This document shows, piece after piece, positions 1 to 53,412 of a stretch of DNA of 64,000 bases. This DNA is from a virus. The position numbers and the translations under genes were made by a program. How positions within the stretch are numbered: the stretch's first letter is position 1; the number at the start of each line of letters is the position of its first letter. Where the stretch lies: positions 1 through 64,000 of IMG/VR virus record IMGVR_UViG_3300020057_001229. One strand, 5' to 3'. Under the pieces are notes generated by a model that was given only the letters and a program-made list of their open reading frames with translations, made no database searches and was not told the DNA's origin.

Positions 1-1425
1 TCATCGTTGCCTTCTGTTGATGGGGGCTGACCAGTCGGAGCTATTTTGGGGAGCTTCAAGATACCACCGAGCCACTTTGTCCCATGACCGCTCCGTTATA
101 AACGTATGTTGATTGTCACGGACTTCTTGGGCGTAAGTTGGTTCTTCGAAAATCTTTTTAATCGTGGTCACGTATTCTTCTATAGAACGACAGACCGGAA
201 TGTAGCCTTTGAACTCGTGGAAGAAGGGAACGTCTCCTACGATTGTCGGCGTGCCGCTAGCAAGAGCAAGACGGACGGCACCGGACGCTCCATGCACTCG
301 CCAATCGGGATGGTTCCAATATGGAAACAGGTTGATTTTAGCCTGTTTCATGTAGGAGAAAAGAACTTGTTCCGATCTGAAGCCTTTATGTAGCACTACG
401 TTGCTATAGAGACTTCGCTCTTCGAGCTGCTCCATCAACTTTTTGTAATATTCTTCGTGGAACGACATGTAGAACTTAGACATATTGAAGATGCCGATGT
501 AGGCAACTTCTGGGTAGTCTTTGATAAGCGCATCGACGACATCTGGAACAGTTGACCACCCTTTGTATTCAAAGCCAAAGCCGAATTGGAAAAGCATGTT
601 CTGATTGTGGAACGTGGAGTGTTTGATTTCGGTTTCAGTTTGCTGCATACAGCCGTGGGGGATGTAGTGGATCGGTGCGTGGGTGATGCCTTTCTGGCGT
701 AGGAGGTCTCTTGCTGTCTCGCTGTGAACGATGATCTCTTGGCAAGGTGATTCAAAGACGAGCTTATCGACGTGTTCGTAAACCGAGTGCAAGATGACGA
801 CGGTCTTGTAGCGAGACGACAAGTAGCCGATCAACATGTTCCAAGACACGGGATTGTGAAAACTGCCGTACTCATGTTGGACGTAGATGATGTCGGGGTT
901 GTATTCTTTGATAGCTCCCAAAATCTTACTGTAGTCGCCCTTCGTTCTATCCCAGCAGCGGACAATGTTTTCTTCCGGTGGGATGTCGTCAGCCTGCTCT
1001 GCGAAGATGCAAATGTTTCCGACGAGCTTTGACATTTCTTCTACAAGCATTTTGCAGTAGGTGGACATCCCACAGTTTGTCCCATAGCTAGAAATGATAG
1101 CTACTTTTTGGTTAGTTTTCTCTTGCTGTGTCACGACTCGCTGACCTAAAGCAGTTGTGGCTGGACTCGTTGAGGGGCGAGACTTAGAGGTTCCCTGTGC
1201 TGCGATTTTATTAAGCATTGCAGCGGAAGTCCCCCTACGGGCAACTTTGCCGTCTACGACTTCGTAGTCTGCTTTTAGAATTTCGGGATCAATGTTTGCT
1301 AAGTCATTGTCTAGACGCACGAAGGTTGTGGTGCTGTTGTAAAGCAAGGTCTTGGAAACGACTTCTATTTTCGAACCACGATAGCCAATATACAAAGCAG
1401 CTTCTCCTAATTCTTTTGATTTCAA
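1..1425 (-). CDS. Glycosyltransferase (GT-B/GT4-like) with N-terminal extension
   Basis: CGMSTY, VQHEYG, IPHG, FGFGFEYKG, FPY...GASGAVRLALASGTPTIV motifs typical of GT4 enzymes. Confidence 0.75.
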   Translation of the reverse strand: MKSKELGEAALYIGYRGSKIEVVSKTLLYNSTTTFVRLDNDLANIDPEILKADYEVVDGKVARRGTSAAMLNKIAAQGTSKSRPSTSPATTALGQRVVTQQEKTNQKVAIISSYGTNCGMSTYCKMLVEEMSKLVGNICIFAEQADDIPPEENIVRCWDRTKGDYSKILGAIKEYNPDIIYVQHEYGSFHNPVSWNMLIGYLSSRYKTVVILHSVYEHVDKLVFESPCQEIIVHSETARDLLRQKGITHAPIHYIPHGCMQQTETEIKHSTFHNQNMLFQFGFGFEYKGWSTVPDVVDALIKDYPEVAYIGIFNMSKFYMSFHEEYYKKLMEQLEERSLYSNVVLHKGFRSEQVLFSYMKQAKINLFPYWNHPDWRVHGASGAVRLALASGTPTIVGDVPFFHEFKGYIPVCRSIEEYVTTIKKIFEEPTYAQEVRDNQHTFITERSWDKVARWYLEAPQNSSDWSAPINRRQR

Positions 1426-3136: not shown

Positions 3137-3583
3137 CGTACCTGGACGTTCAAACATCTGCTTAAGCCTAAGGCTCTCTGCCGTAATGCGGTAGAAAAGT
3201 TGATCGGCGTAGGTGCCGTAGGTGGTAGCTGCATACGCTGTGCGGAAGCCTGCGTAAGTCATGCGTTCATAAATACGGTACGCATCTTCGACCTTGAAGT
3301 AGGTCACTTCGTTAAGTGCCGTCTCCAAGTTCTCAAGGGAGAGCGTAGCCGTATCTATAGAATCACAAAGAGCCGAGTAGGTGTTTACACAACCTACCGG
3401 CGAACGGATGTCGGTGTAGTCAAGGCGAAGTGTCGTAAGCGAGCTTAAAGCTTCAGCACGACGGAACCAACGGGGATCATTCTCAACCGGAGCTTCAGGC
3501 GTAGGAGCTGAATCACTCTTCTTAGAAGAGCTACCGCAAGACACTAAAAATGTGAGACAGCACAAAGCTACAAGCCTACGCAC
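3113..3583 (-). CDS. Putative lipoprotein; C-terminus altered by the IS insertion
   Basis: Signal peptide and lipobox-like LVSC. Confidence 0.6.
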   Translation of the reverse strand: MRRLVALCCLTFLVSCGSSSKKSDSAPTPEAPVENDPRWFRRAEALSSLTTLRLDYTDIRSPVGCVNTYSALCDSIDTATLSLENLETALNEVTYFKVEDAYRIYERMTYAGFRTAYAATTYGTYADQLFYRITAESLRLKQMFERPGTLTSSPRL

Positions 3584-3870: not shown

Positions 3871-4755
3871 TCATTTCAATAACTTGTACTTAGAAAGGAC
3901 ACGCTCTCTGAGGGAGCCTAAGACACGATTCCACACCGGAAGGTCTTTATCGCCAAGCCGTGCTATCTCTTTTTTGAAGCCTAAGTCTCGGGGCAGGTTC
4001 TTGTAAAAATGCTTAGCCTTCGATTGGCTGATCTTATACTGTTTTTTCACTTCTTCGTCTAGCATGATAATTTTTTGGGCACCGGCTTTTTTTGCCATAT
4101 CAACTAAGGTAGCCAAGAATTTCTTCTCCCAGCCGCCTAAGTGTTTGACCAAGAACTCTTGAAGCTGTTTGGTTTCGTCTACGTTGATGACGGACTTCAT
4201 AAACGTCTCAAGGCTTTCGGTCATCGACGAGAAGTCTTTTTCCCAACCTACGTAGTCCGACTGCATCTCTTCGACGATCCACATATCTTTCAAAGTGTAG
4301 ACCCGAGCCCATGCGAAGGTGTGGTCGCCCAAAGGGTGTTGTGAGCCTTTGTACTTCTCAAAGACTGCCGTAAAGAACTTGTTGGCGGCTGGGTCCGCTT
4401 CGATCTTGGTAATCATCTCTGGTGTGAAGTTGAGCTGGAACACCTTCTGAGCCGAAGGTAGGATCTTTTGCAGGTTCATCTTCCATTCAGTTTCCGAAAG
4501 CCAAAACTTTTCGTCTTTAGGATTGATTTGGCTGATTTCATTCTTGAGATCTTTGACGCTGATTTTGTTGGTCTTCGTAAAAAAGATGCTTTTGAGATTC
4601 TCCGCAATCTCAGGGTAAGCCTCTTTGACATCGTTATAGTGGATGACCCTATCGTCAGGTACAGCTTTTAGATCTTGATGGATCATCTCTTTAATAGGGG
4701 CAATGACCGTAGCGTTGCCTTTTTTGACGGATATTTTTGCGTTTACTTCGAACAC
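3871..4755 (-). CDS. Hypothetical protein, paralogue of 50724-51668 (WARVYTLKD..WI.EE.QSD)
   Basis: Direct alignment of motifs between the two ORFs. Confidence 0.75.
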   Translation of the reverse strand: MFEVNAKISVKKGNATVIAPIKEMIHQDLKAVPDDRVIHYNDVKEAYPEIAENLKSIFFTKTNKISVKDLKNEISQINPKDEKFWLSETEWKMNLQKILPSAQKVFQLNFTPEMITKIEADPAANKFFTAVFEKYKGSQHPLGDHTFAWARVYTLKDMWIVEEMQSDYVGWEKDFSSMTESLETFMKSVINVDETKQLQEFLVKHLGGWEKKFLATLVDMAKKAGAQKIIMLDEEVKKQYKISQSKAKHFYKNLPRDLGFKKEIARLGDKDLPVWNRVLGSLRERVLSKYKLLK

Positions 4756-4760
4756 GGTAG

Positions 4761-6953
4761 TTACCTCGCTAACGGCAAGAGAAGTTGGAGGAGGTCTAGC
4801 TTCTCGTCCGATATTACATCTTGCTTAAGAGCAGTTTTGGGATCAATAGCCTTCTTAAACCTTGGCAGTAAACCTTTGTCTGCAAACGCTTGGAGGAGTT
4901 CTTTAGAAGATTTCAAAGCTGGGATGGTGAGCAGTCGTTTGATAGTCGCCTTGTTGTATTCACCGATTTGTTCCCGGTGCTCAGCCATACGCTCCAAATA
5001 GTCCATTACGACATCTTTTGGATATTTCGATTTACGGTCGAGAAGCTTATTGATCGCAACCGCTTGCACATTGAACTCTTTAACTTCTAGCATCTTCAAA
5101 AGCGTCTTCGAGTTCATTAGATCTACGAACTTTGTAACACGGTCGTTCACTTCTCGAATTTCAATCTTTGTAGGGTTTGCGATCCAGCCTGCAAGTTGTT
5201 TGATGTTATGGTTAGACGCCTGCGTGAAAACGGAAGCATCGTCGCCAAGCTCATTAAGCAAAGGAGCTATCTTTTCGACTGTCGTAGCTTGCGGAAGTTT
5301 TTTGGCGAAGGCTTCCCACTCAGTATCCGTAAGCGAGATATCAACATCTTCTTTCATTGCGATGAGCAGGAGGTCCAACGCAGAGTTGACGTTCACTACA
5401 TTAAGCCAATCCGACGCATCGACTTGGGTCAGCAGCCTGCTCCTAATAAGGGGTGCTGTAAGCGCCATATCGACGAGGGTCTTAAACTGTTTGCTTTCTG
5501 GTCCGTCTGAGATGATCTGGTCGATAATTTCTGGATGCTTGAATATGAGATATGCTTTTTCTTTTTTATAATAGTCGTGGTCTATTAAAGCCTTTGCGTC
5601 ATGGGTAACTAAATCCTTTTCGGAGATGTCGAAAAGATCAAGCAGATGCTTAAAGTCTTCGTCGTTTCCTTTTAAGTTAATTTCGCTGACAATACTTGCA
5701 ACTAGCTTAGTTCCTTCGGTCTTAGCATTTAACACTACTTCTTGTTCATCATCGTCGTCTTCGTCGTCGTCTTCCTTAGCTTCGTATCTTCCCTTAGATG
5801 GTTTTAGGATGCCTAAAACACGAGGAATAAGAGCCTTAACCCACGAAGCATAACCTGACCTTTTATACAACAGGAAGAAGTTGTAAGCATCGTAGGGGTA
5901 ATCGTCAGATGCTAGACTTAATTTATCCCAATCTAAATTGAGGCTTTGGATCTCTTCGGGTTTTAAGCCCAACATAACTTTATAAAAGCTGTTGCCACGG
6001 TAGTCGTAGAGCGCCTCTTTAAATTCGTCAGGTCCGAGGGACTCCAGAATTTTGCTGAAATCCATCTCATGGGCACTCATGTAGGGAAGAAGACCGCTGA
6101 TATGTTTCGTCTCCATTCCAGCGAAGATTCTGTAGTCCGTGGCGTCATCACCATTGTTGGAGATGGCATCTTTTAGCTGTGAAACGAAGTCGTCTTTGTC
6201 TGCTGCTTCTTGGTAAAACCGAGGGACGAGCAGCGGCTTTTTTCTGTATATTTCGTCTACGATATCGTAGTCAGGATTTAAGATTTCGGGGAGATACTTC
6301 TCTCCGACTCTGAGAATATCTCCGAACAGGTCATGCTTACCCGTTGCATTGCTCTTGAAAAACTCGTAGGCAAATGACTTAAAGCGCTCTGGCTTGGGTT
6401 TTGTTCTTAGGTAAGCCTTTAAAAGTCTCAGTGCCGTTAATGAGGAGTCGCCTTCCTCAGCGTCATCCAACTGCTTCTTAAAAGCCGGACAAGAGATAAG
6501 AGCCTTAGCGACGGCTGGATCTGGCTCGTTAGAAGCAGTCAAGCGATTCACCATGGCTGTGAAAATGTTATCGTAGGACTCGTCTGTTCCAGTCGTCAAA
6601 ATATCGAGAAGTTCTGTGCTGTAGTCCCTTTCAAGAACATCAACGTCTTTAGAGAGCAAGTCTTCGTCGCCGTGCTCTTTAATGTCATCGAAAATCATTT
6701 TTCTCTGCACGTCATCTTTTAAGTCCATGAGGATGGAGAGAAGATTTGGACGGTGCTGATAGAGTGCGAACCTGTTCTCTAATGTAAAGGCTTTGGGTAG
6801 CGCCGTCATATAGATGGGAATAAGCTTTTCGTTTTCTCGAAAAAAGTCCACGAAGAAGTCATTATCGTTGATCCCTTCGGCTGCTTCAAGAGCAGTCTCT
6901 TTGTCTTTAGCGGCGTACTTAATAAAGACTTTTTTAAGGATGTTCTCAGACAT
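4761..6953 (-). CDS. Large alpha-helical protein; C-terminus related to 47562-50711
   Basis: Long ORF; probable ATG at 6953; C-terminal LLQLLLPLAR vs LLRLLVQLAR. Confidence 0.75.
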   Translation of the reverse strand: MSENILKKVFIKYAAKDKETALEAAEGINDNDFFVDFFRENEKLIPIYMTALPKAFTLENRFALYQHRPNLLSILMDLKDDVQRKMIFDDIKEHGDEDLLSKDVDVLERDYSTELLDILTTGTDESYDNIFTAMVNRLTASNEPDPAVAKALISCPAFKKQLDDAEEGDSSLTALRLLKAYLRTKPKPERFKSFAYEFFKSNATGKHDLFGDILRVGEKYLPEILNPDYDIVDEIYRKKPLLVPRFYQEAADKDDFVSQLKDAISNNGDDATDYRIFAGMETKHISGLLPYMSAHEMDFSKILESLGPDEFKEALYDYRGNSFYKVMLGLKPEEIQSLNLDWDKLSLASDDYPYDAYNFFLLYKRSGYASWVKALIPRVLGILKPSKGRYEAKEDDDEDDDDEQEVVLNAKTEGTKLVASIVSEINLKGNDEDFKHLLDLFDISEKDLVTHDAKALIDHDYYKKEKAYLIFKHPEIIDQIISDGPESKQFKTLVDMALTAPLIRSRLLTQVDASDWLNVVNVNSALDLLLIAMKEDVDISLTDTEWEAFAKKLPQATTVEKIAPLLNELGDDASVFTQASNHNIKQLAGWIANPTKIEIREVNDRVTKFVDLMNSKTLLKMLEVKEFNVQAVAINKLLDRKSKYPKDVVMDYLERMAEHREQIGEYNKATIKRLLTIPALKSSKELLQAFADKGLLPRFKKAIDPKTALKQDVISDEKLDLLQLLLPLAR

Positions 6954-7012: not shown

Positions 7013-7504
7013 GTGATTATAACGCCTAAGCAATTGTCTAAAGAGCGCCTCGACATTGGTAACGCTTCCGGCATCTACGTTATGTCTCACGATCAAGCCC
7101 GAACGTTCTACCCGAAGAGGGACGCCTTCTGTATCCGCATTAGGTCGGCGAACTTTGAATGCCAGCCGCTCGTCCACGCCGACCGCTACAAAAGCATCGA
7201 CCTATTCACGTTCGCCGACGTAGACTTCGACGACAAAGACTTTGAGCCCTTCACCACGGCGCAAGCCGCAGCTATGGTTGATCTTTTCGAAAAGTTCAAA
7301 GACCTCAACCTCGTCGTCCACTGCATGGCTGGTCTGTCGAGATCACCGGCTACCGCTTTGGCTTTCCTCTACTTCAAGCAGGACGTTGAAGGCTTCAGGC
7401 AGGCTTCGCTCTACTTCACGATGGCTAACAGCCACGTCTACAGTCTGCTCAAAAACGAGATCGACCGCAGAGCCGAAATTTATACCAATAACGTTATGCC
7501 GTAG
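7013..7504 (+). CDS. Protein-tyrosine/dual-specificity phosphatase-like protein
   Basis: VHCMAGLSRS CX5R P-loop; FADVD acid loop. Confidence 0.8.
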   Translation: MIITPKQLSKERLDIGNASGIYVMSHDQARTFYPKRDAFCIRIRSANFECQPLVHADRYKSIDLFTFADVDFDDKDFEPFTTAQAAAMVDLFEKFKDLNLVVHCMAGLSRSPATALAFLYFKQDVEGFRQASLYFTMANSHVYSLLKNEIDRRAEIYTNNVMP

Positions 7505-8271
7505 ACTTTCTGGAACCGTAAAATGGCGTCTACGAAATGTGAGGGCAGCCGTTTGAAGGTCTCCACCACCATCATCTTCGGGATCTTACGGTAGTGAGCT
7601 TCCGCAATTGCTCCGGCAATGGACGCCTGCGTATCGGCATCTCCACCTAACGAGATCGCAAGCCTTATCGCCGACTCGAAGTCCGTGCTCTCCAAGAAGG
7701 CTCTGATTGCTTGCGGAACGGAGCCTTGGCAGGTGGCGTCCATTTTGTATTTCTTACGGATCATGTCGAGCGGCGTCGAGAGGTCGTAGCCGAAGCGAGT
7801 TTCTAGTTCTTGCCGCAACTTGTCTTTGCAGTAGCCACCATGAACGCACTTGTTCACCCAAACGGCATAAGCAACAGCTTGAGCCCCCTTAATGCCTTCG
7901 GGGTGACTATGTGTGGGGTACGCCGACGCCGCAGCTTCACGTAGAAGGTCGGTCTCTTGGCACTCGCTGTAGGCAACAGGAGAGACCCTCATAGCTGATC
8001 CGTTTCCGAACGAGTCGCCGGGCTTGGGGTCGTCCGACATAAACCAAGCTTTGAACGTCTTGCCGTAGCCTGCGTCAGGGTAGCGGCGACACCAATGAAG
8101 AAGAGCAAGCTCGTAGTCTTTGTGGTGCATCACGGCTTCAGCAACGGCTAAGGTGCAGACCGTATCGTCGGTGAACTTAGAGAACGGTGTAAAGAGTTTG
8201 AAGTCCGTCCGTTTCGTAGGATGAAATTCATAGGTACTTCCAACCATATCGCCAATAAGCGCACCTAGCAT
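7480..8271 (-). CDS. ADP-ribosylglycohydrolase (ARH/DraG family)
   Basis: GALIGDMVG, FTDDT, SFGNGSAMR, THSHPEG, GGDADT. Confidence 0.93.
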   Translation of the reverse strand: MLGALIGDMVGSTYEFHPTKRTDFKLFTPFSKFTDDTVCTLAVAEAVMHHKDYELALLHWCRRYPDAGYGKTFKAWFMSDDPKPGDSFGNGSAMRVSPVAYSECQETDLLREAAASAYPTHSHPEGIKGAQAVAYAVWVNKCVHGGYCKDKLRQELETRFGYDLSTPLDMIRKKYKMDATCQGSVPQAIRAFLESTDFESAIRLAISLGGDADTQASIAGAIAEAHYRKIPKMMVVETFKRLPSHFVDAILRFQKVYGITLLV

Positions 8272-8712
8272 AATTTGATCCTAAGCTATGTTAGAAAGCT
8301 CTTCTTGTTGAACTACGGGAACGTCAAGCCAGAGGGGTGCGTTTTCTTCATCTAAGAACTGCTGCTGCAAAACCTTATCAGGAACTCGCAACATGCGTCC
8401 ATTTTGAAGAGAGACCACATGTCCCCTCTCAACGTAACGAAAGACCGGCGTGACTAAGTAGTTTTTACCTTCGATCTTTTTGAGCCAGCCGTTCGTCATT
8501 TGACCTCCGTCACATCTTCTAACTGGTAAACTCTTCTCACCCAACCGTTCGACACGTTGTCCATGCCGTACCAAACATGTACTTCCGTACAAGCAGGATC
8601 ATAGTAAAGACCGTTTACCTTCTGGCATTGGATGCCTACTACGGTTCCGATGCCGTCTACTGTTTTGACTTTACTGAAGATGGGAAGACGCAGGATGTCA
8701 ACGTGAGGAACA

Positions 8713-8973
8713 TCACCGACTTGGCAGTGTGGATAGCAAGGTAGGTTTTCCATACGTGCCACGGTCTCCAGTAAAAGGTTTCCAATTGGAAATCTCCACG
8801 GCGGAGATCCTGACAATCTGGTCAGACCTTACACGGCACGGCGTATGCACGATGTTGTACCAGTCTACGATGAGCGAGATTGTCCCGTTGTCATCTTTAC
8901 CTAAGTAGCCTCGAAATTCAAGAGCTACGTCAGTGTTTCGGTCATGTTTATAGAGCTGGTGTCTCTCGAACAT
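8713..8973 (-). CDS. Hypothetical protein
   Basis: ORF with GGGAG SD upstream. Confidence 0.5.
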   Translation of the reverse strand: MFERHQLYKHDRNTDVALEFRGYLGKDDNGTISLIVDWYNIVHTPCRVRSDQIVRISAVEISNWKPFTGDRGTYGKPTLLSTLPSR

Positions 8974-9018
8974 TTTTCAACTCCCTTCCGCTGAAGCTGC
9001 TACCGAGGCAGATTACCT

Positions 9019-9055
9019 TTGACATCCTCCCCACGGCTAAAGCCGGGGGATTCCT
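9019..9055 (-). mobile_element. Isolated IS200/IS605 right end
   Basis: AGGAATCCCCCGGCTTTAGCCGTGGGGAGGATGTCAA on the minus strand, closely matching 3100-3136. Confidence 0.8.
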
Positions 9056-9125
9056 CTTTTAGTAACACCAGCACTATTGATCCGCAACTACCTCACAGTA
9101 CACAAAGCCAGTAACATATCTTTAA

Positions 9126-9201
9126 TGGAGCCCGAGGTCGGAGTCGAACCGACGACCTTCACATTACAAGTGTGCTGCTCTACCAACTGAGCTACTCGGG
9201 C
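9126..9201 (-). tRNA. tRNA-Thr(UGU)
   Basis: Cloverleaf; loop CTTGTAA; encoded CCA. Confidence 0.95.
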
Positions 9202-9212
9202 ATTTTAAAAAA

Positions 9213-9299
9213 TGGCGGAAACGGTGGGACTCGAACCCACAAGGCTTTTACACCCACTCGCTTTCCATGCGAGCCGACTACCAATTATCACACGTTTCC
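9213..9299 (-). tRNA. tRNA-Ser(GGA)
   Basis: Cloverleaf with long variable arm; loop ATGGAAA; G73 + CCA. Confidence 0.93.
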
Positions 9300-9307
9300 A
9301 TAAATAA

Positions 9308-9535
9308 TCATTCTTCACAAATCGCAACTCTGAAAATGGGGTCCTTATGAAACAGAGGAGGACAATCGTCGGATTGATACATATTTTCTACACACCCGAT
9401 AAACCCCTCGTCCCCTTCTCGATACTCTACTACTTTCTTTTCTCTCAGCATGAACTTTAAAAACTCACAATGCTCAGGTCTTTGAGCGACTACGGAGTAG
9501 AGTGCTAATTCTGATTCGTAGATCACTCGGTACAT
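9308..9535 (-). CDS. Hypothetical protein within the Ser/Thr tRNA operon
   Basis: Small ORF overlapping the stop of the upstream ORF. Confidence 0.5.
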   Translation of the reverse strand: MYRVIYESELALYSVVAQRPEHCEFLKFMLREKKVVEYREGDEGFIGCVENMYQSDDCPPLFHKDPIFRVAICEE

Positions 9536-9777
9536 TACGTCTCCATTTGAGCTAACAGCGGCGTTACACGAGCGTTTCTCTCTGCAAAATAAATAGGACT
9601 AGGCTGCTTAGCTATCCACTCAACGCACTCTTCTTCCGTATCGAAATCTGCTGCTACGATGTCATCTTGTTCGTCGATTACAAACCAAGCCTTCATCGAC
9701 TTTTCCGACCGCTCTTTACACTCGTCGTGGTACTTGAACCAAGAATCTGGCGGTCTGCCCACGTTTACATCATCCAT
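9535..9777 (-). CDS. Hypothetical protein within the Ser/Thr tRNA operon
   Basis: Small ORF with AGGTG SD. Confidence 0.55.
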   Translation of the reverse strand: MDDVNVGRPPDSWFKYHDECKERSEKSMKAWFVIDEQDDIVAADFDTEEECVEWIAKQPSPIYFAERNARVTPLLAQMET

Positions 9778-9794
9778 AAATCACCTTTGAAAAA

Positions 9795-9882
9795 TGGCGG
9801 AGCAAGTCCGATTTGAACGGACGGTACTTTTACATACGGCGGGTTTCAAGTCCGCTGGTTTAAACCGCTCACCCACTACTCC
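9795..9882 (-). tRNA. tRNA-Ser(UGA)
   Basis: Cloverleaf with long variable arm; loop CTTGAAA; G73 + CCA. Confidence 0.93.
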
Positions 9883-9894
9883 GTTATAAAGCAC

Positions 9895-10116
9895 TTACAA
9901 ACACCTCTGTAGGTTTCCGTTCTTATCTTGTTGCACATCCCAAACAGAACCGTCGTTTTCGACGATGACCGTAATGCGCCCTTCTACGAAGTCACACGTC
10001 ATACATTCGTACTTGTTGACGACACGAACGATGTGGTCTCCTGCAAAGGAGAGAACCATCTTTTCGCTGTTACCGTCCCAAGGGTGTCCTACGAGATCTT
10101 TCAAAACTTGCATCAC
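9895..10116 (-). CDS. Small protein, possibly protease-inhibitor-I78-like
   Basis: DLVG...VRVV...MTCDF..GRITV pattern; family call is tentative. Confidence 0.4.
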   Translation of the reverse strand: MMQVLKDLVGHPWDGNSEKMVLSFAGDHIVRVVNKYECMTCDFVEGRITVIVENDGSVWDVQQDKNGNLQRCL

Positions 10117-10135
10117 TACACTCCGAACTAAAGAA

Positions 10136-10221
10136 TGGCGGTAGCGGAGAGACTTGAACTCTCAAGGCTGTTACACCCGACCGCTTTCGAAACGGCTCCA
10201 ATACCATTATGGGACGCTACC
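10136..10221 (-). tRNA. tRNA-Ser(CGA)
   Basis: Cloverleaf with long variable arm; loop TTCGAAA; G73 + CCA. Confidence 0.93.
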
Positions 10222-10536
10222 ATATCAATAAAATTCAACCTTTGCACTTTTGCCAAACAACTTTTTGAGTCTCTCTTCCGACGCCTCTTTATCTTCTTCG
10301 GACCCCAACCGGGACCTTCGCCGTGGTACCGCTCGTGCTCTTCCAACAAGTCTGCCGCAGCGTAGATCTTGTTACCTAAGTCGTGCCTGATCTTGTCTAA
10401 TTCCTCAGCCGTGTATACTTCTTGAGCAGACGACCCTAAGCCAATTTGCTTACCATTACCTTGCTCCGCTTCAAGCTCGGCAACAGCCGGTAAGTCTTCT
10501 TCGTTATTCATTTTTCAAAGATCCTTAATTGAAGGT

Positions 10537-10579
10537 AAAAAGAAAGAACCCCGCTTCCTAGTCGGAGAGCGGGGTTCTT
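10537..10579 (-). terminator. Attenuator terminator upstream of the Ser/Thr tRNA operon
   Basis: AAGAACCCCGCT/AGCGGGGTTCTT 12-bp stem followed by TCTTTTT. Confidence 0.85.
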
Positions 10580-10605
10580 ATATCGTGCAAACACGCCGTA
10601 AGAAG

Positions 10606-10668
10606 TCACCCGCCCTCGGTCGTCGAGGAGGTTGAGCAGCTACTTGTCGTGGAAACGAAATTCTTCAT
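10606..10668 (-). promoter_or_regulatory. Ser/Thr-rich leader peptide MKNFVSTTSSCSTSSTTEGG
   Basis: 11 of 20 codons are Ser/Thr; its 3' end GAGGGCGGG..TTCTTA can pair with the terminator 5' arm. Confidence 0.85.
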
Positions 10669-10706
10669 ACGTTGGATAATCTCACAAGCAAAAACGAAAC
10701 GCAAGC

Positions 10707-11102
10707 TCACTTAGATACGTAGTGGTAGCCAAGTGCAAAAGTTACTAACAATATGAAGCCCCAAAGGCTACCGAAAAGCAACCACTCTAGCCAACACCAA
10801 TCTTGGAGACCACGGTGCGTCCACAAGATCTCGACACTCTTCTTCTCAGTCTTCTTATGTTGGATTACGAGGACAGCAGAGCGGGGGACGAAAGTCTTTT
10901 CGTCGATCATAATGACTTCTCGGTGCTTGAAGGCGTACTCCATATCGAACTTGCGCCAAACGAGCGGACCTTTTTTGTAGTCGTACCAGTCCGCTTCTTC
11001 TTGGATCAGCTTCGTGTAGGTGTTACCTTTGAGGTCTGTGATCTCAAAGGTGTAGACGTTCACCTCTACATGACGCTGCTCAATTACCGTTTCCCACCGC
11101 AT
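10707..11102 (-). CDS. Hypothetical protein with C-terminal TM helix
   Basis: ORF probably starting MRWETV; hydrophobic C-terminus. Confidence 0.5.
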   Translation of the reverse strand: MRWETVIEQRHVEVNVYTFEITDLKGNTYTKLIQEEADWYDYKKGPLVWRKFDMEYAFKHREVIMIDEKTFVPRSAVLVIQHKKTEKKSVEILWTHRGLQDWCWLEWLLFGSLWGFILLVTFALGYHYVSK

Positions 11103-11595
11103 GGAACGCTCCAAGTCTGTAGAGATCTGTGATGTAGCGCTGGAAGCGTTCGACATCTTTCTCAGTTAATTTACGGTTCTTGAGCCTATCAAGCCTTGCG
11201 TTGTCTTTCATGTCAAGGATTTTGATCTTACGGGCAACGGGGCTCTTTTCAATATTTTGCAAATACTCTTCGTGGTCGAGACCATCTCTCTTAGTAAGAG
11301 CGTCTACGATTTTGAGTTGGCTCGAAGTCATTCCCAAGTTCTCAAGGTCAGGCAAAGACAAGAAAGTATCTTCGACGGCATCGTGGAGCACTCCGCAGAT
11401 CATTTCATCTTCGGTGCCGAGCTGTTCCATGACACGCAGCGGATGCCGGATGTAAGCGTTCTTCCCTTTGTCCTCTTGCGTGCCGTGAGCTACGACGGCG
11501 ATTGCAATCGCTTTCGGAAGCGTCATAGGTCCGTCAAGCAATTTCATAAAGCTTTGCATGAGAACATTTTTGGTTTGTTCGCTTAGAACCGCCAT
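11080..11595 (-). CDS. HD-domain hydrolase, RelA/SpoT (p)ppGpp-hydrolase-like
   Basis: AHGTQEDKG..YIRHP, LHDAVEDT, ALTK, KILDMKDN. Confidence 0.8.
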   Translation of the reverse strand: MAVLSEQTKNVLMQSFMKLLDGPMTLPKAIAIAVVAHGTQEDKGKNAYIRHPLRVMEQLGTEDEMICGVLHDAVEDTFLSLPDLENLGMTSSQLKIVDALTKRDGLDHEEYLQNIEKSPVARKIKILDMKDNARLDRLKNRKLTEKDVERFQRYITDLYRLGAFHAVGNGN

Positions 11596-11597
11596 CG

Positions 11598-11945
11598 TTA
11601 CTCCTCCTTGAAATACACCTTGTACGTGTTGCCGTTGTTGTCGGCTTTGAATATAAACCAGATCTTCTCTACGGCGTCTGAAATTGGATCGTAGATCTCG
11701 GAGACGTAAGGCACCTCCCGAAGATCGTCGCCGTCTTTGTACTCTGCCTTAGAAACTTTAAGGAACCAAGCGTAGGCTTTGTTGTACATCTGACAGCGGG
11801 CATTGATGTCGGAAGCTACTTGGTCTGCCCGCTCGCCGACATCTGCCGAACGCTCGAACCATTTCGTAATGGGTATGACGTGGGCATGGTGGCTGTCGCA
11901 AGGCGTCAGATCCGGGGAGCCGTCTTCATGGAGTACAGGGATCAT
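11598..11945 (-). CDS. Hypothetical protein
   Basis: ORF; probable start near MAMIPV (start approximate). Confidence 0.45.
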   Translation of the reverse strand: MIPVLHEDGSPDLTPCDSHHAHVIPITKWFERSADVGERADQVASDINARCQMYNKAYAWFLKVSKAEYKDGDDLREVPYVSEIYDPISDAVEKIWFIFKADNNGNTYKVYFKEE

Positions 11946-12087
11946 AGCCATACTTAACCCTTTCACATTTTGTCGGAAGTGGGCGAGTACGTCGCAGATA
12001 GTTTTTGCCGTGGCTTTTTCATAGCGACATCTTAGCAAGAGCTAGTCTACGATGTCTTCTTCAAACTCAATTTAGAAAGGTTTTTCT

Positions 12088-15644: not shown

Positions 15645-15728
15645 AAAAAAGCCTCCACATGCGGAATGGGGAGGAGAGTATCACGAATATTGACTATGGT
15701 AAATGTCTAAAAATCCTGTAGTGTTGTG

Positions 15729-15805
15729 TGGTTGCGGGAGCGTGAGTCGAACACGCCGAGCTTTAGGTTATGAGCCTAACGAGCCTCCCTTGCTCCATTC
15801 CCGCT
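15729..15805 (-). tRNA. tRNA-Met(CAU), initiator-like
   Basis: Loop CTCATAA; unpaired 1:72 position; CCA; TTGACT-N17-TAGATT promoter directly upstream. Confidence 0.85.
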
Positions 15806-15850
15806 GAAACCTAATCTACACCAGATCTTCGTGGAGTCAAGACAACGCAA

Positions 15851-15882
15851 CAAAAAAGGCGCTCCGTGAAGAGCGCCTTTTT
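15851..15882. terminator. Bidirectional intrinsic terminator
   Basis: AAAAAAGGCGCTC-CGTGAA-GAGCGCCTTTTT. Confidence 0.8.
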
Positions 15883-28380: not shown

Positions 28381-28440
28381 TTACACCCGCCTGCGTTTTG
28401 CCTTAGAGAAAGATCTTGAAGATGTAGAGAGAAAGAACAT
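28381..28440 (-). promoter_or_regulatory. Arg leader peptide MFFLSTSSRSFSKAKRRRV
   Basis: AGA plus tandem CGC AGG CGG; hairpin over the stop codon; ends ~50 nt upstream of tRNA-Arg. Confidence 0.7.
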
Positions 28441-28494
28441 AGTAGTACCTAGATATTCACGTATACAATTTAGTATATTGTCTTCTGGAAAAAA

Positions 28495-28950
28495 ATGTCA
28501 AAGGGAAATTTCATGGATTATCCAATAGCCACCGTCCGCGAGATCAACGGAGAACTTTTTCTCGACGATCCTACGGCGCTTGCCGTCATCAAAGCCACCA
28601 GCCGCGCCGCTTGCCGTAAGACGTTTGAGATGCAAAGAGACCGCGTAGAGCACTTCGTCACTCGCACCAGTGCGCTCAACCTTTCGACGGAAGATGTTGT
28701 CATCGTTTTAGCCAACGCCGATGACCCTAACGGCAAACAGCTCGCCGAAGCCCTCATGCCGAACCACGATTGGCAAGCTTACCGCAACCTAGGCGAGCTT
28801 CCCTTTGCTCGCGGGCTTGCTGAGAGGGAAGGCATCCAGTGGTTCATAGAGGATATGGAGCCTGACATGGCTTCGGTGCTCAAGAACCATGCTGGAGTTG
28901 CTGTAGTCGTCGTAGACCACGGCGTCATAGAAGTTCTTTCGCCGTCGTAA
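28495..28950 (+). CDS. Hypothetical protein
   Basis: ORF. Confidence 0.6.
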   Translation: MSKGNFMDYPIATVREINGELFLDDPTALAVIKATSRAACRKTFEMQRDRVEHFVTRTSALNLSTEDVVIVLANADDPNGKQLAEALMPNHDWQAYRNLGELPFARGLAEREGIQWFIEDMEPDMASVLKNHAGVAVVVVDHGVIEVLSPS

Positions 28951-31872: not shown

Positions 31873-32360
31873 AAAGTCTAGACAAAAAGACCGCTACGGT
31901 TTAAAGGTGCAATACCTTCTCCTTCCATCGCTACCGTAAAGGTGCAGAGCAACCCGTCCCTTTCTATTTTTCAAGGCAGAAAGGGAAACGAAGTGAGCAC
32001 CATCTGGATGAAGCTGTTCAATAAGGTCGAAGAGGTAGCCAAGCCCTTCCTCGTCATTTCTGAAACCGCCACCTCGACCTGGCACTACCACTTCCGACTG
32101 GTAGGTCCCGAGGGCGCGGCAGCGCTATGCGGCGCGAAACTCGGATGGGACACGACGATGCCGCTCTCGACGTGGGGGCTCAAGGATCACATCCCGTCCC
32201 GCTACTGCGGAACATGCGAAAAGGAAGCGCGTGCTCGCGGTTTGTGGGCGGGGTGAAGCTTAAGCTCTGCGTCTGCGAGAAGACCGCTGACGACTAAAAA
32301 ATTCTCATCTACGCCTCGAAAAGTATTGACGAAGAGACCGTACTACGATACGGTTAATTT

Positions 32361-32414
32361 ATGCAATACTTTCTCCCTCCATTGCTACCCCTCCTGACCA
32401 AGCTCTTACCGTAA
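32361..32414 (+). promoter_or_regulatory. Leu/Pro leader peptide MQYFLPPLLPLLTKLLP
   Basis: 7 Leu and 4 Pro of 17 codons; TTGACG-N17-TACGGT promoter ending 6 nt upstream; hairpin over the stop codon. Confidence 0.85.
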
Positions 32415-52141: not shown

Positions 52142-52194
52142 GGTTGACGAGTTCTGTGAGAGCTGCTAGGATTTGGGTAATGGGAGTTCACAAA

Positions 52195-52236
52195 ATGTTC
52201 CGTTCCGTAAATAACAATAATGAAGAAACAAGCTAG
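52195..52236 (+). promoter_or_regulatory. Asn/Glu leader peptide MFRSVNNNNEETS
   Basis: GGGAG SD; promoter TTGACG-N17-TAGGAT; four tandem Asn codons. Confidence 0.88.
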
Positions 52237-52261
52237 GGTCGAAAGTCCTTTCTGGCTTACG

Positions 52262-52290
52262 ACCCGTTTGGTAACCCAAGCGGGTTTTTT
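52262..52290 (+). terminator. Attenuator terminator upstream of tRNA-Asn
   Basis: ACCCGTTTGG-TAAC-CCAAGCGGGT plus T-tract. Confidence 0.88.
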
Positions 52291-52307
52291 ATTTGTATCG
52301 AATTTAT

Positions 52308-52385
52308 TCCGGTGTGGGGGAAGTTGGTAATCCCGCCTCGCTGTTACCGAGGAGCATGTACGTTCGATCCGTACCACCGGAGCCA
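52308..52385 (+). tRNA. tRNA-Asn(GUU)
   Basis: Cloverleaf; loop CTGTTAC; G73 + CCA. Confidence 0.92.
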
Positions 52386-53202: not shown

Positions 53203-53290
53203 GGGAGAGTAGCCTATCGGCACGAGGCAGCGGCTTGTTAAGCCGCCAGTGGACGTAAGTCCGAAGTGGGTTCGATTCCCACCTCTCCCT
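53203..53290 (+). tRNA. Atypical tRNA with GUU anticodon and long variable arm, no CCA
   Basis: GGGAGAG/CTCTCCC acceptor, GCGGC-TTGTTAA-GCCGC, TGGAC-GTAA-GTCCG arm, GTGGG-TTCGATT-CCCAC. Confidence 0.75.
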
Positions 53291-53316
53291 CTTTTTTTCT
53301 ATAAGGAATTTTCGAT

Positions 53317-53358
53317 ATGCTGTTTCGACTAGAAGAAGAACAAATTAATTCGGGCTGA
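53317..53358 (+). promoter_or_regulatory. Glu leader peptide MLFRLEEEQINSG
   Basis: AAGGA SD; GAA GAA GAA; 3' TCGGGC is complementary to the terminator 5' arm. Confidence 0.88.
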
Positions 53359-53385
53359 GAGAGTCGGTAACGACAACTCTTTTAT

Positions 53386-53412
53386 GCCCGATCTTTGGAT
53401 CGGGCTTTTTTT
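53386..53412 (+). terminator. Attenuator terminator upstream of the tRNA-Glu pair
   Basis: GCCCGATC-TTTG-GATCGGGC-TTTTTTT. Confidence 0.9.

Follow-up and report, generated by a model that had tools for sequence, protein, structure and literature searches.

A predicted ribosome-mediated attenuator ahead of the serine and threonine tRNA genes of an uncultured phage

Why phages carry tRNA genes, and how those genes are controlled, is an old and open question. The usual answers are that phage tRNAs match codon usage or replace host tRNAs that have been degraded or cleaved, and these answers treat the genes as simply expressed. The locus described here raises the question of whether one block of such genes is instead placed under a switch. 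The window, by which we mean the whole stretch of 64,000 nucleotides (nt) that was analyzed, is the first 64 kb of the 88,687-base-pair (bp) IMG/VR record IMGVR_UViG_3300020057_001229, which was recovered from microbial-mat metagenomes and has a CheckV completeness of 32%. The window contains all 15 tRNA genes known from the record, clustered by amino acid. Ahead of three tRNA-Ser genes and one tRNA-Thr gene, at positions 10537-10706 on the minus strand, stands a short open reading frame (ORF) followed by a terminator-like hairpin. We consider this element likely to be a ribosome-mediated leader-peptide transcription attenuator that gates the Ser/Thr block. An initial annotation of the sequence had proposed that a ribosome at the leader stop codon permits termination while one stalled at Ser or Thr codons permits read-through, and this logic is supported in computation.

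The leader mini-ORF, MKNFVSTTSSCSTSSTTEGG, lies in a gap of 195 nt without a long ORF, between the end of a 149-amino-acid (aa) ORF (10707) and the start of the next ORF (10511) on the minus strand. Positions in the leader are numbered below from nt 1, which is position 10668; the coordinates of all features are collected in Table 1. The six Ser codons (TCC AGT AGC TCA TCC TCG) and five Thr codons (ACG ACA ACC ACG ACC) listed in the initial annotation are present exactly as given and account for 11 of the 19 residues after Met. Against a background of 13.2% Ser plus Thr codons, taken from the 69 long ORFs of the record, the binomial tail for at least 11 of 19 is 5.7e-6, and when the 195-nt intergenic stretch was dinucleotide-shuffled 20000 times, 18 of the shuffles contained an ATG ORF with at least 11 Ser/Thr residues. 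Codons for all four downstream tRNAs are also there, as had been stated: TCC for anticodon gga, TCA for tga, TCG for cga, and ACA and ACG for tgt.

How the leader would be translated is less conventional. The absence of a Shine-Dalgarno motif noted earlier was borne out by a search for GGAG-like motifs within 12 nt upstream of the ATG, so that translation of the leader would depend on a leaderless or a coupled start. The spacing given for the putative -10 element is also correct, with 7 nt between the end of TG-n-GATTAT and the A of the ATG. A leaderless start of the leader mRNA is plausible given this distance between the -10-like hexamer and the ATG, which recurs in three leaders of cultured phages described below. 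An alternative start is GTG (10710-10708), which is in frame with the leader and overlaps the TGA of the 149-aa ORF; it is a possible rival, a coupled start that would yield a leader of 34 codons. We infer from the sequence that the leader ORF is translated, which promoter serves it, and that the terminator functions in the host; the tRNA genes would depend on read-through.

The RNA downstream of and within the leader can adopt alternative structures. The 12-bp terminator stem of the initial annotation was found (nt 90-101 with nt 114-125) and gains three further inner pairs. The antiterminator likewise pairs as had been claimed, GAGGGCGGG-TGAC-TTCTTA (nt 52-70, segment 2) with TAAGAA-C-CCCGCTCTC (nt 89-104, segment 3), and encloses the predicted inner hairpin CGTG-TTTG-CACG (nt 74-85). 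The energy of this 2:3 helix is -25.0 kcal/mol. Between the 5' arm of the terminator and the 87 nt upstream, the most stable duplex has an energy of -20.6 kcal/mol, which 1 of 1000 shuffles reached (shuffle mean, -10.3 kcal/mol; standard deviation [sd], 2.4). In the same test the terminators before other tRNAs gave 24/1000 (Asn) and 18/1000 (Glu), and 12 other terminator-like hairpins in the genome gave 166-977/1000; 3 of the 18 genome hairpins (13064+, 50787-, and 85517+) were omitted, having been dropped beforehand for poor T-tails. A plain minimum free energy fold of 201 nt was unremarkable (z = -1.84).

A second antiterminator strand, unseen in the initial annotation, lies at the very start of the leader. 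Codons 2-6 (nt 4-18) pair with the 3' arm of the terminator (nt 111-125) over 15 bp, 4 of them G-T, at -19.8 kcal/mol, and none of 2000 shuffles matched this complement (mean, -9.0; sd, 2.2). The two antiterminator helices are nested, and the loop that they enclose (nt 19-51) is 33 nt long, about the size of a ribosome footprint, and holds most of the Ser/Thr run. In their letters, nt 4-18 resemble the 5' arm of the terminator (10564-10579, minus strand) with several C-to-T changes, G-T pairs preserving the pairing with the 3' arm; this strand may have arisen by duplication. Comparable pairing between the 5' region of the leader and the 3' arm of the terminator was unsupported in two sister units of the same phage, those for tRNA-Glu (351/2000) and tRNA-Asn (1377/2000).

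Constrained RNA folding was used to follow the effect of a ribosome on this switch. In the model, the probability of the terminator, P(terminator), is the mean pair probability of its 12 pairs at equilibrium, with the stretch around each A-site codon forced unpaired. P(terminator) was 0.94-0.97 in the absence of a ribosome and when one occupied codons 2-10 or any position between codon 16 and the stop; with the ribosome on the stop codon itself the terminator was kept (about 0.96), in line with the initial annotation. With a ribosome around codon 13, P(terminator) fell to 0.02 or less at all five footprint sizes tried. Read-through upon stalling was reproduced there but not along the entire Ser/Thr run, since only codons 11-15 flip the model. 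The flipping window is 2 to 5 codons wide inside those codons, by choice of footprint, and it takes in TCA, TCC, and TCG, each cognate to a different one of the three downstream tRNA-Ser genes. Among shuffled leaders (nt 1-88), none of 357 was switch-like; their minimum P(terminator) had a 1% quantile of 0.84, versus a minimum of 0.002 for the native leader.

Both antiterminator strands take part in the predicted flip, and blocking either nt 4-18 or nt 52-70 alone returned P(terminator) to 0.96. The initial annotation had held that the 2:3 helix excludes the terminator; its strand nt 52-70 is indeed needed for the flip, but the 2:3 pairing alone is insufficient at equilibrium. The model is an equilibrium one, whereas attenuation is kinetic. 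For a transcript that ends at nt 104, 2:3 is the minimum-energy fold without a ribosome, with a ribosome at codons 12-14, and, shortened, with one at codon 15. A ribosome at codon 9 leaves most of the 2:3 pairing in place, together with a small upstream hairpin, and no 2:3 pairing forms once the ribosome is at the stop codon.

We hypothesize the following sequence of events. RNA polymerase would start at the weak extended -10 promoter of the leader, giving a leaderless mRNA, or farther upstream in the operon of the 149-aa ORF and an HD-domain hydrolase gene, and a ribosome would translate the 20-codon ORF. If Ser and Thr codons are decoded fast, the ribosome would reach the TGA and cover nt 46-72; because the 5' strand of the antiterminator is then occupied, the terminator of about -25 kcal/mol would form and transcription would stop before the tRNA genes. 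If decoding is slow, the ribosome would dwell at codons 11-15 (TGC TCA ACC TCC TCG), inside the 33-nt loop, while nt 4-18 capture the 3' arm of the terminator and nt 52-70 its 5' arm, so that polymerase would enter the tRNA genes. The tRNA Ser/Thr block and the small ORFs between its genes would thus be gated as one unit from the leader. The tRNAs produced would be those that decode the sensed codons, which would make this a negative feedback on the supply of decoding capacity.

Two alternative structures of nearly equal energy are what any riboswitch-like element needs, and the same RNA could in principle sense tRNA directly, as a T-box does, or respond to a phage antiterminator protein or a small molecule, in which case the ORF would be irrelevant. 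An Rfam cmscan of positions 8500-12000 (E<=1) returned only tRNAs and sub-threshold matches to small RNAs, with no T-box and no Thr_leader, and the positions of the switch fall on a reading frame and on its stop codon. We regard direct sensing as highly improbable.

The attenuator reading gains from the other tRNA units of the phage. Mini-ORFs also precede the Asn (MFRSVNNNNEETS), Glu (MLFRLEEEQINSG), Leu/Pro (MQYFLPPLLPLLTKLLP), and Arg (MFFLSTSSRSFSKAKRRRV) units, and at all five leader-bearing units the leader is most enriched for its own tRNA set. The numbers of shuffles per 20000 that matched this own-amino-acid enrichment were 95 for Asn, 368 for Glu, 157 for Leu/Pro, and 219 for Arg, and Fisher's combined p was 1.5e-7 over the five units and 9.7e-6 when the Ser/Thr unit was excluded. 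No intrinsic terminator was found in the Leu/Pro unit and no T-run terminator in the Arg unit, which is the weakest case. The only tRNA unit of the record without a leader is that of tRNA-Met, which has a plain promoter. Sites of the form TTGACN-16..18-TANNNT occur 12 times in the record, and 4 of them head tRNA units (Leu/Pro, Asn, Arg, and Met). No sequence is shared among the five leaders, and recent duplication was rejected as their source for that reason. One other feature of these units may be recorded: the second tRNA-Asn(gtt), at 53203-53291 on the plus strand, is 89 nt long by ARAGORN, which is unusual for an Asn tRNA.

Similar mini-ORFs are present in three cultured phages, Erythrobacter phages vB_EliS-L02 and XM05 and Sphingobium phage Lacusarx (loci L041, OL955261.1 69345-81462; L042, PV416404.1; and L043, KY629563.1). 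The first of these, reached via a tRNA-level match, carries 32 tRNAs in 6.4 kb, in which three units each have a TTGACA promoter, a mini-ORF, and a hairpin before a tRNA block. Homologues of its third leader, which are MFTQTALHLLTQTPLYCQWQYSCSSL in XM05 and MFTQTTLLTQCHYWQLLSSSSL in Lacusarx, retain the amino-acid set and permute the order of residues, and the Lacusarx hairpin shows one compensatory pair of changes. In three leaders of the cultured phages TATACT or TATCAT stands exactly 7 nt before the ATG. The units resemble those of the window in having a promoter, a mini-ORF whose residues list the amino acids carried by the tRNAs that follow, a hairpin, and a tRNA block. Unlike those of the window, their leaders abut the hairpin with the stop codon and no clear T-run follows, so that their switch logic may differ; the two groups also have no sequence similarity. 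Our claim for the cultured phages is accordingly limited to the presence of cognate mini-ORFs, which is read from their sequences, and does not extend to the mode of action. A term search of the genome paper of vB_EliS-L02 (PMC9127768) gave no occurrence of 'attenuat', 'leader', or 'terminator'. All leader mini-ORFs found, in the window and elsewhere, open with M, zero to two residues, and F (MKNF, MF, MLF, MQYF, MFF, MFN, MTF, MFT, and MFN); this opening may reflect a T-rich start region or a common requirement for initiation.

The permuted leaders bear on the possibility that the mini-ORF encodes a functional Ser/Thr-rich micropeptide, either a precursor or a small regulator, with the hairpin as its terminator. 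Its frame is open and is flanked by a promoter-like site and a terminator, and leader peptides that act in trans have been published, peTrpL being an example. The cultured phages, however, keep the composition of the peptide and permute the order of its residues, a pattern that speaks against selection for a folded or processed product; the five leaders of the window share no sequence, each mirroring its own tRNAs, and the peptide has no known family or relatives. This is the least probable of the explanations that we weighed.

Table 1. Features of the Ser/Thr leader region and of the related tRNA units. Positions are those of the window unless another locus is named.
Feature	Position	Strand	Details
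149-aa ORF	10707..11156	-	Upstream of leader; no Pfam family; TGA stop 10709-10707
Candidate leader promoter	10676..10704	-	-35-like TTGCGT (10704-10699), 17 nt, TG-n-GATTAT (10684-10676)
Leader mini-ORF and stop	10606..10668	-	ATG 10668-10666, TGA 10608-10606, 20 codons
Second antiterminator strand (nt 4-18)	10651..10665	-	Codons 2-6; complementary to terminator 3' arm
Ser/Thr codon run	10618..10653	-	Codons 6-17; within loop between the two antiterminator helices
Segment 1	10624..10635	-	Codons 12-15, TCA ACC TCC TCG; pairs with segment 2
Segment 2	10599..10617	-	ORF end, TGA, and 7 nt past stop; antiterminator 5' strand; would be covered by stop-codon ribosome
Inner hairpin	10584..10595	-	4 bp, CGTG-TTTG-CACG; enclosed by antiterminator
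Segment 3	10565..10580	-	TAAGAACCCCGCTCTC; common to antiterminator and terminator 5' arm
Predicted intrinsic terminator	10537..10579	-	12+3 bp hairpin 10579-10544, -25.4 kcal/mol; then TCTTTTT (10543-10537)
First ORF past terminator	10128..10511	-	127 codons as read; AAGGA precedes; no family, no relatives found
Promoter-like TTGGCA-17-TTTTAT	10228..10256	-	Relaxed scan; ends 7 nt before tRNA-Ser(cga)
tRNA-Ser(cga)	10136..10221	-	
tRNA-Ser(tga)	9795..9882	-	
tRNA-Ser(gga)	9213..9299	-	
tRNA-Thr(tgt)	9126..9201	-	
tRNA-Met(cat) unit	15652-15877	-	TTGACT-16-TAGATT ends 7 nt before tRNA; terminator-like hairpins on both sides
Arg unit	28381..28501	-	TTGACA-18-TATACT; mini-ORF start 28440; tRNA-Arg(tct)
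Leu/Pro unit	32326..32414	+	TTGACG-17-TACGGT, 6 nt, mini-ORF start 32361; tRNA-Pro and four tRNA-Leu
Asn unit	52144..52292	+	TTGACG-17-TAGGAT; mini-ORF 52195-52236; terminator 52263-52284 and T-run; tRNA-Asn at 52308
Glu unit	53317..53412	+	Mini-ORF 53317-53358; terminator 53387-53404 and T-run; tRNA-Glu(ctc), tRNA-Glu(ttc)
Starts of M..F leaders	Window 10668, 52195, 53317, 32361, 28440; L041 1566, 3157, 4688 (mini-ORFs 1566-1652, 3157-3219, 4688-4771); L034 2917		
First vB_EliS-L02 leader			MFNVIAMNNPAPAIMVPVAMACVEGTRD; precedes Pro, Pro, Val, Ile, Ala, Asn tRNAs
Second vB_EliS-L02 leader			MTFGRTKRDRREGDERGFTS; precedes Lys, Lys, Gly, Gly, Asp, Ile, Glu, Glu, Arg, Arg, Phe, Arg tRNAs
Third vB_EliS-L02 leader			MFTQTALHLLTQTTLCWQCQYSSLSPF; precedes Ser, Tyr, Leu, Leu, Thr, His, Gln, Gln, Ser, Cys, Trp, Thr, Leu tRNAs

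A number of results weigh against an attenuator that senses Ser and Thr, and they are set out in this and the next three paragraphs. The leader ATG has no Shine-Dalgarno motif ahead of it, and the promoter candidate of the leader is weak, agreeing with the consensus at 7 of 12 positions and missed by both consensus scans. Segment 1 includes three Ser codons, one cognate to each downstream tRNA-Ser gene, and can pair with segment 2 (nt 34-45 with nt 51-63, -12.6 kcal/mol); this 1:2 helix is no better than chance, being equaled by 650 of 2000 shuffles, and for that reason the hairpin was not counted as evidence. These same points would favor an ordinary terminator at the end of the operon of the HD hydrolase and the 149-aa ORF, 128 nt past the stop codon of the latter, the mini-ORF and the pairings being accidents of a C/T-rich stretch that faces a G-rich one. 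Such an accident would have to produce a Ser/Thr content reached in just 18 of 20000 shuffles, complements to the terminator arms matched by 1/1000 and 0/2000 shuffles, and switch-like behavior found in 0/357; the 12 other hairpins of the genome have no such complements, and four further tRNA units have leaders rich in their own amino acids. We therefore hold the operon-end explanation to be quite improbable.

Within the folding model itself, the case for the attenuator is weakened by the dependence on nt 4-18. When all RNA 5' of the ribosome was masked, P(terminator) stayed at 0.96, the 2:3 helix alone failing to displace the terminator, and a queued second ribosome would cover nt 4-18. With the 5' side masked in this way, the 2:3 helix would have to serve as a kinetic trap; the model suggests that the flip additionally needs the pairing of nt 4-18 with the 3' arm, or else kinetic trapping as in classical attenuators. 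The sister units did not reproduce the behavior of the Ser/Thr leader in the mask model. The Asn leader gave no clean switch (minimum, 0.65), and the Glu leader when unoccupied corresponded to read-through (0.11), with a ribosome anywhere on the ORF leading to termination.

Relatives and natural variants likewise lend no help to the attenuator reading. No homologous Ser/Thr leader was found in other phages, among viral contigs and the viral and metagenome loci with homologues of the HD hydrolase, and the region is identical, with zero differences, in four other DNA runs, so that there is no population variation to use. In the viral contig collection, no related locus was found for the neighboring 149-aa ORF, a 96-aa downstream ORF, or an ADP-ribosylglycohydrolase, and an exact 28-nt piece of tRNA-Ser(cga) had no match. 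An alignment of 32 homologues of the HD hydrolase led to 19 viral and 16 metagenome loci, of which 8 and 15, respectively, were scanned for tRNAs; these occurred in only three scanned loci (L005, L034, and L040). The closest HD homologues (P0002-P0006) have 66-74% identity. Among the viral records, the four with the highest HD identity (54-56%) contain 0-3 tRNAs each and no evident cognate leader. In the metagenome contig L034, the order is HD gene, 32-codon ORF, terminator, two tRNA-Ala, and three tRNA-Met; its leader has a modest share of cognate residues (of 31, 7 are Ala and 1 is an internal Met), the contig stops 263 nt past the last tRNA, and the leader showed no switch in the mask model (0.99 throughout).

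The remaining points concern what is sensed and what is controlled. By standard wobble rules, we take the codons AGT, AGC, and ACC to lie outside the reach of the four downstream tRNAs, which leaves 4 of the 11 Ser/Thr codons (AGT, AGC, and ACC twice) unread by them. Small ORFs are interspersed among the three tRNA-Ser genes and the tRNA-Thr gene on the same strand behind the terminator, so the gated unit includes protein ORFs, and the next strong minus-strand hairpin does not occur until 3125. No TTGACN-16..18-TANNNT promoter was found on the minus strand between 15840 and 6599, and thus none lies between the terminator and the tRNAs; a relaxed promoter scan found TTGGCA-17-TTTTAT before tRNA-Ser(cga), which matches at 9 of 12 positions and lacks the A at -10 position 2. 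This site is a possible bypass of the attenuator. The switch could also be coupled to translation without being specific for Ser and Thr, responding to ribosome availability or to coupling in general, or it could serve mainly the protein ORFs (10511-10128 and the ADP-ribosylglycohydrolase), the tRNAs being largely self-started; the distance of 7 nt between the internal site and the tRNA gives it the same geometry as the tRNA-Met promoter, and the several ORFs behind the terminator and the four unread codons fit such a role. The codons at which the model flips are nevertheless TCA, TCC, and TCG, one per tRNA-Ser, the match between leader and tRNA amino acids holds at 5 of 5 leader-bearing units, and the internal site is imperfect at a -10 position in an interval with no TTGAC-type promoter. 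We judge a nonspecific switch to be unlikely, although less so than the operon-end explanation.

Several neighboring genes deserve mention in their own right. The ORF at 10128-10511 (minus strand) meets its first stop only at 10128, so its frame crosses the entire tRNA-Ser(cga) gene (10221-10136) on the same strand. A 73-aa ORF resembling peptidase inhibitor I78 (9895-10116, minus strand) sits between two tRNA-Ser genes, and the ADP-ribosylglycohydrolase (7480-8271, minus strand; PF03747, E 1.5e-32) lies farther downstream; both may be cotranscribed with the tRNAs behind the switch. The HD-domain protein gene (11080-11595, minus strand) is two genes upstream of the leader and has a match to PF13328 below the cutoff (E 3.5e-4), and its homologues carry the name (p)ppGpp synthase/HD hydrolase in some sources. 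On L034 an HD homologue with 50% identity (2378-2794) stands directly before the mini-ORF, terminator, and tRNA block. The placement of the HD gene in both the window and L034 hints at a connection between alarmone hydrolysis and tRNA supply.

Beyond the attenuator itself, we tentatively suggest a closed loop, in which the phage regulates its own tRNA supply through an attenuator that acts as a two-handed clamp and, with the Asn, Glu, Leu/Pro, and Arg leaders, tops up only scarce tRNAs, codon family by codon family. We regard this extension as possible and rather doubtful. If it is true, the shortage could come from degradation or cleavage of host tRNAs during infection or from a host pool unfit for the codon use of the phage. 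A leader-peptide sensor placed before a tRNA block would mean that the phage gauges the decoding speed of particular codons and responds with matching tRNAs. Attenuation would be extended to a new class of targets, RNA genes that feed back on the sensor, and the 160-nt element would be a small, modular device with which to sense how chosen codons are decoded. No publication on leader-peptide control of tRNA genes was found in a full-text literature search that was partly judged by title and abstract, and the closed loop would be a mode of tRNA-gene regulation that this search did not find described for any organism. The three cultured phages with similar mini-ORFs make the question open to experiment without the uncultured phage of the window.

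The closest well-known systems are the leader-peptide attenuators of enterobacteria (thrL, trpL, hisL, leuL, pheL, and ilvL), which consist of a short ORF rich in regulatory codons, an intrinsic terminator, and an antiterminator that overlaps the end of the ORF. The Ser/Thr leader shares with them the codon-enriched ORF, the terminator, and an antiterminator 5' strand that runs over the end of the ORF and its stop, and in both the position of the ribosome decides the outcome, in the folding model for the case at hand. The thr leader is the nearest of them, as two amino acids are sensed in one leader, which is also what we propose for Ser and Thr. The differences from the enterobacterial attenuators are that the targets are phage tRNA genes and small ORFs and include no biosynthetic or synthetase genes; that the antiterminator is two-handed, with leader segments on either side of a ribosome-sized loop capturing the two terminator arms; that there is no sequence or Rfam match and the 1:2 helix is not statistically supported; and that the start of the leader is probably leaderless or coupled and not driven by a Shine-Dalgarno motif.

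T-box riboswitches sense the supply of a particular charged tRNA by binding the tRNA directly, with no ORF, and use a terminator/antiterminator switch. The proposed Ser/Thr leader would have the same physiological role, with a switch tied to a reading frame and with no T-box match. In Streptomyces lividans and Deinococcus deserti, leaderless leader peptides have been described ahead of genes for aminoacyl-tRNA synthetases and for biosynthesis (PMC8079986, PMC4007540). In the passages of these papers that we draw on, the ORF lies at the 5' end of the transcript, as in the candidate arrangement here, the cognate amino acid is enriched, and the target belongs to the supply chain of decoding (thrS, leuS, alaS, trpS, and cysS) (PMC8079986, PMC4007540). 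As far as those passages go, these leaders control cellular synthetase and enzyme genes, and tRNA genes as targets are unmentioned (PMC8079986, PMC4007540), whereas the genes behind the Ser/Thr leader are viral tRNA genes. The class of mechanism proposed here is thus a textbook one; what would be new are its target, tRNA genes, and the feedback that this target implies, and the anatomy of the two-handed clamp is unusual.

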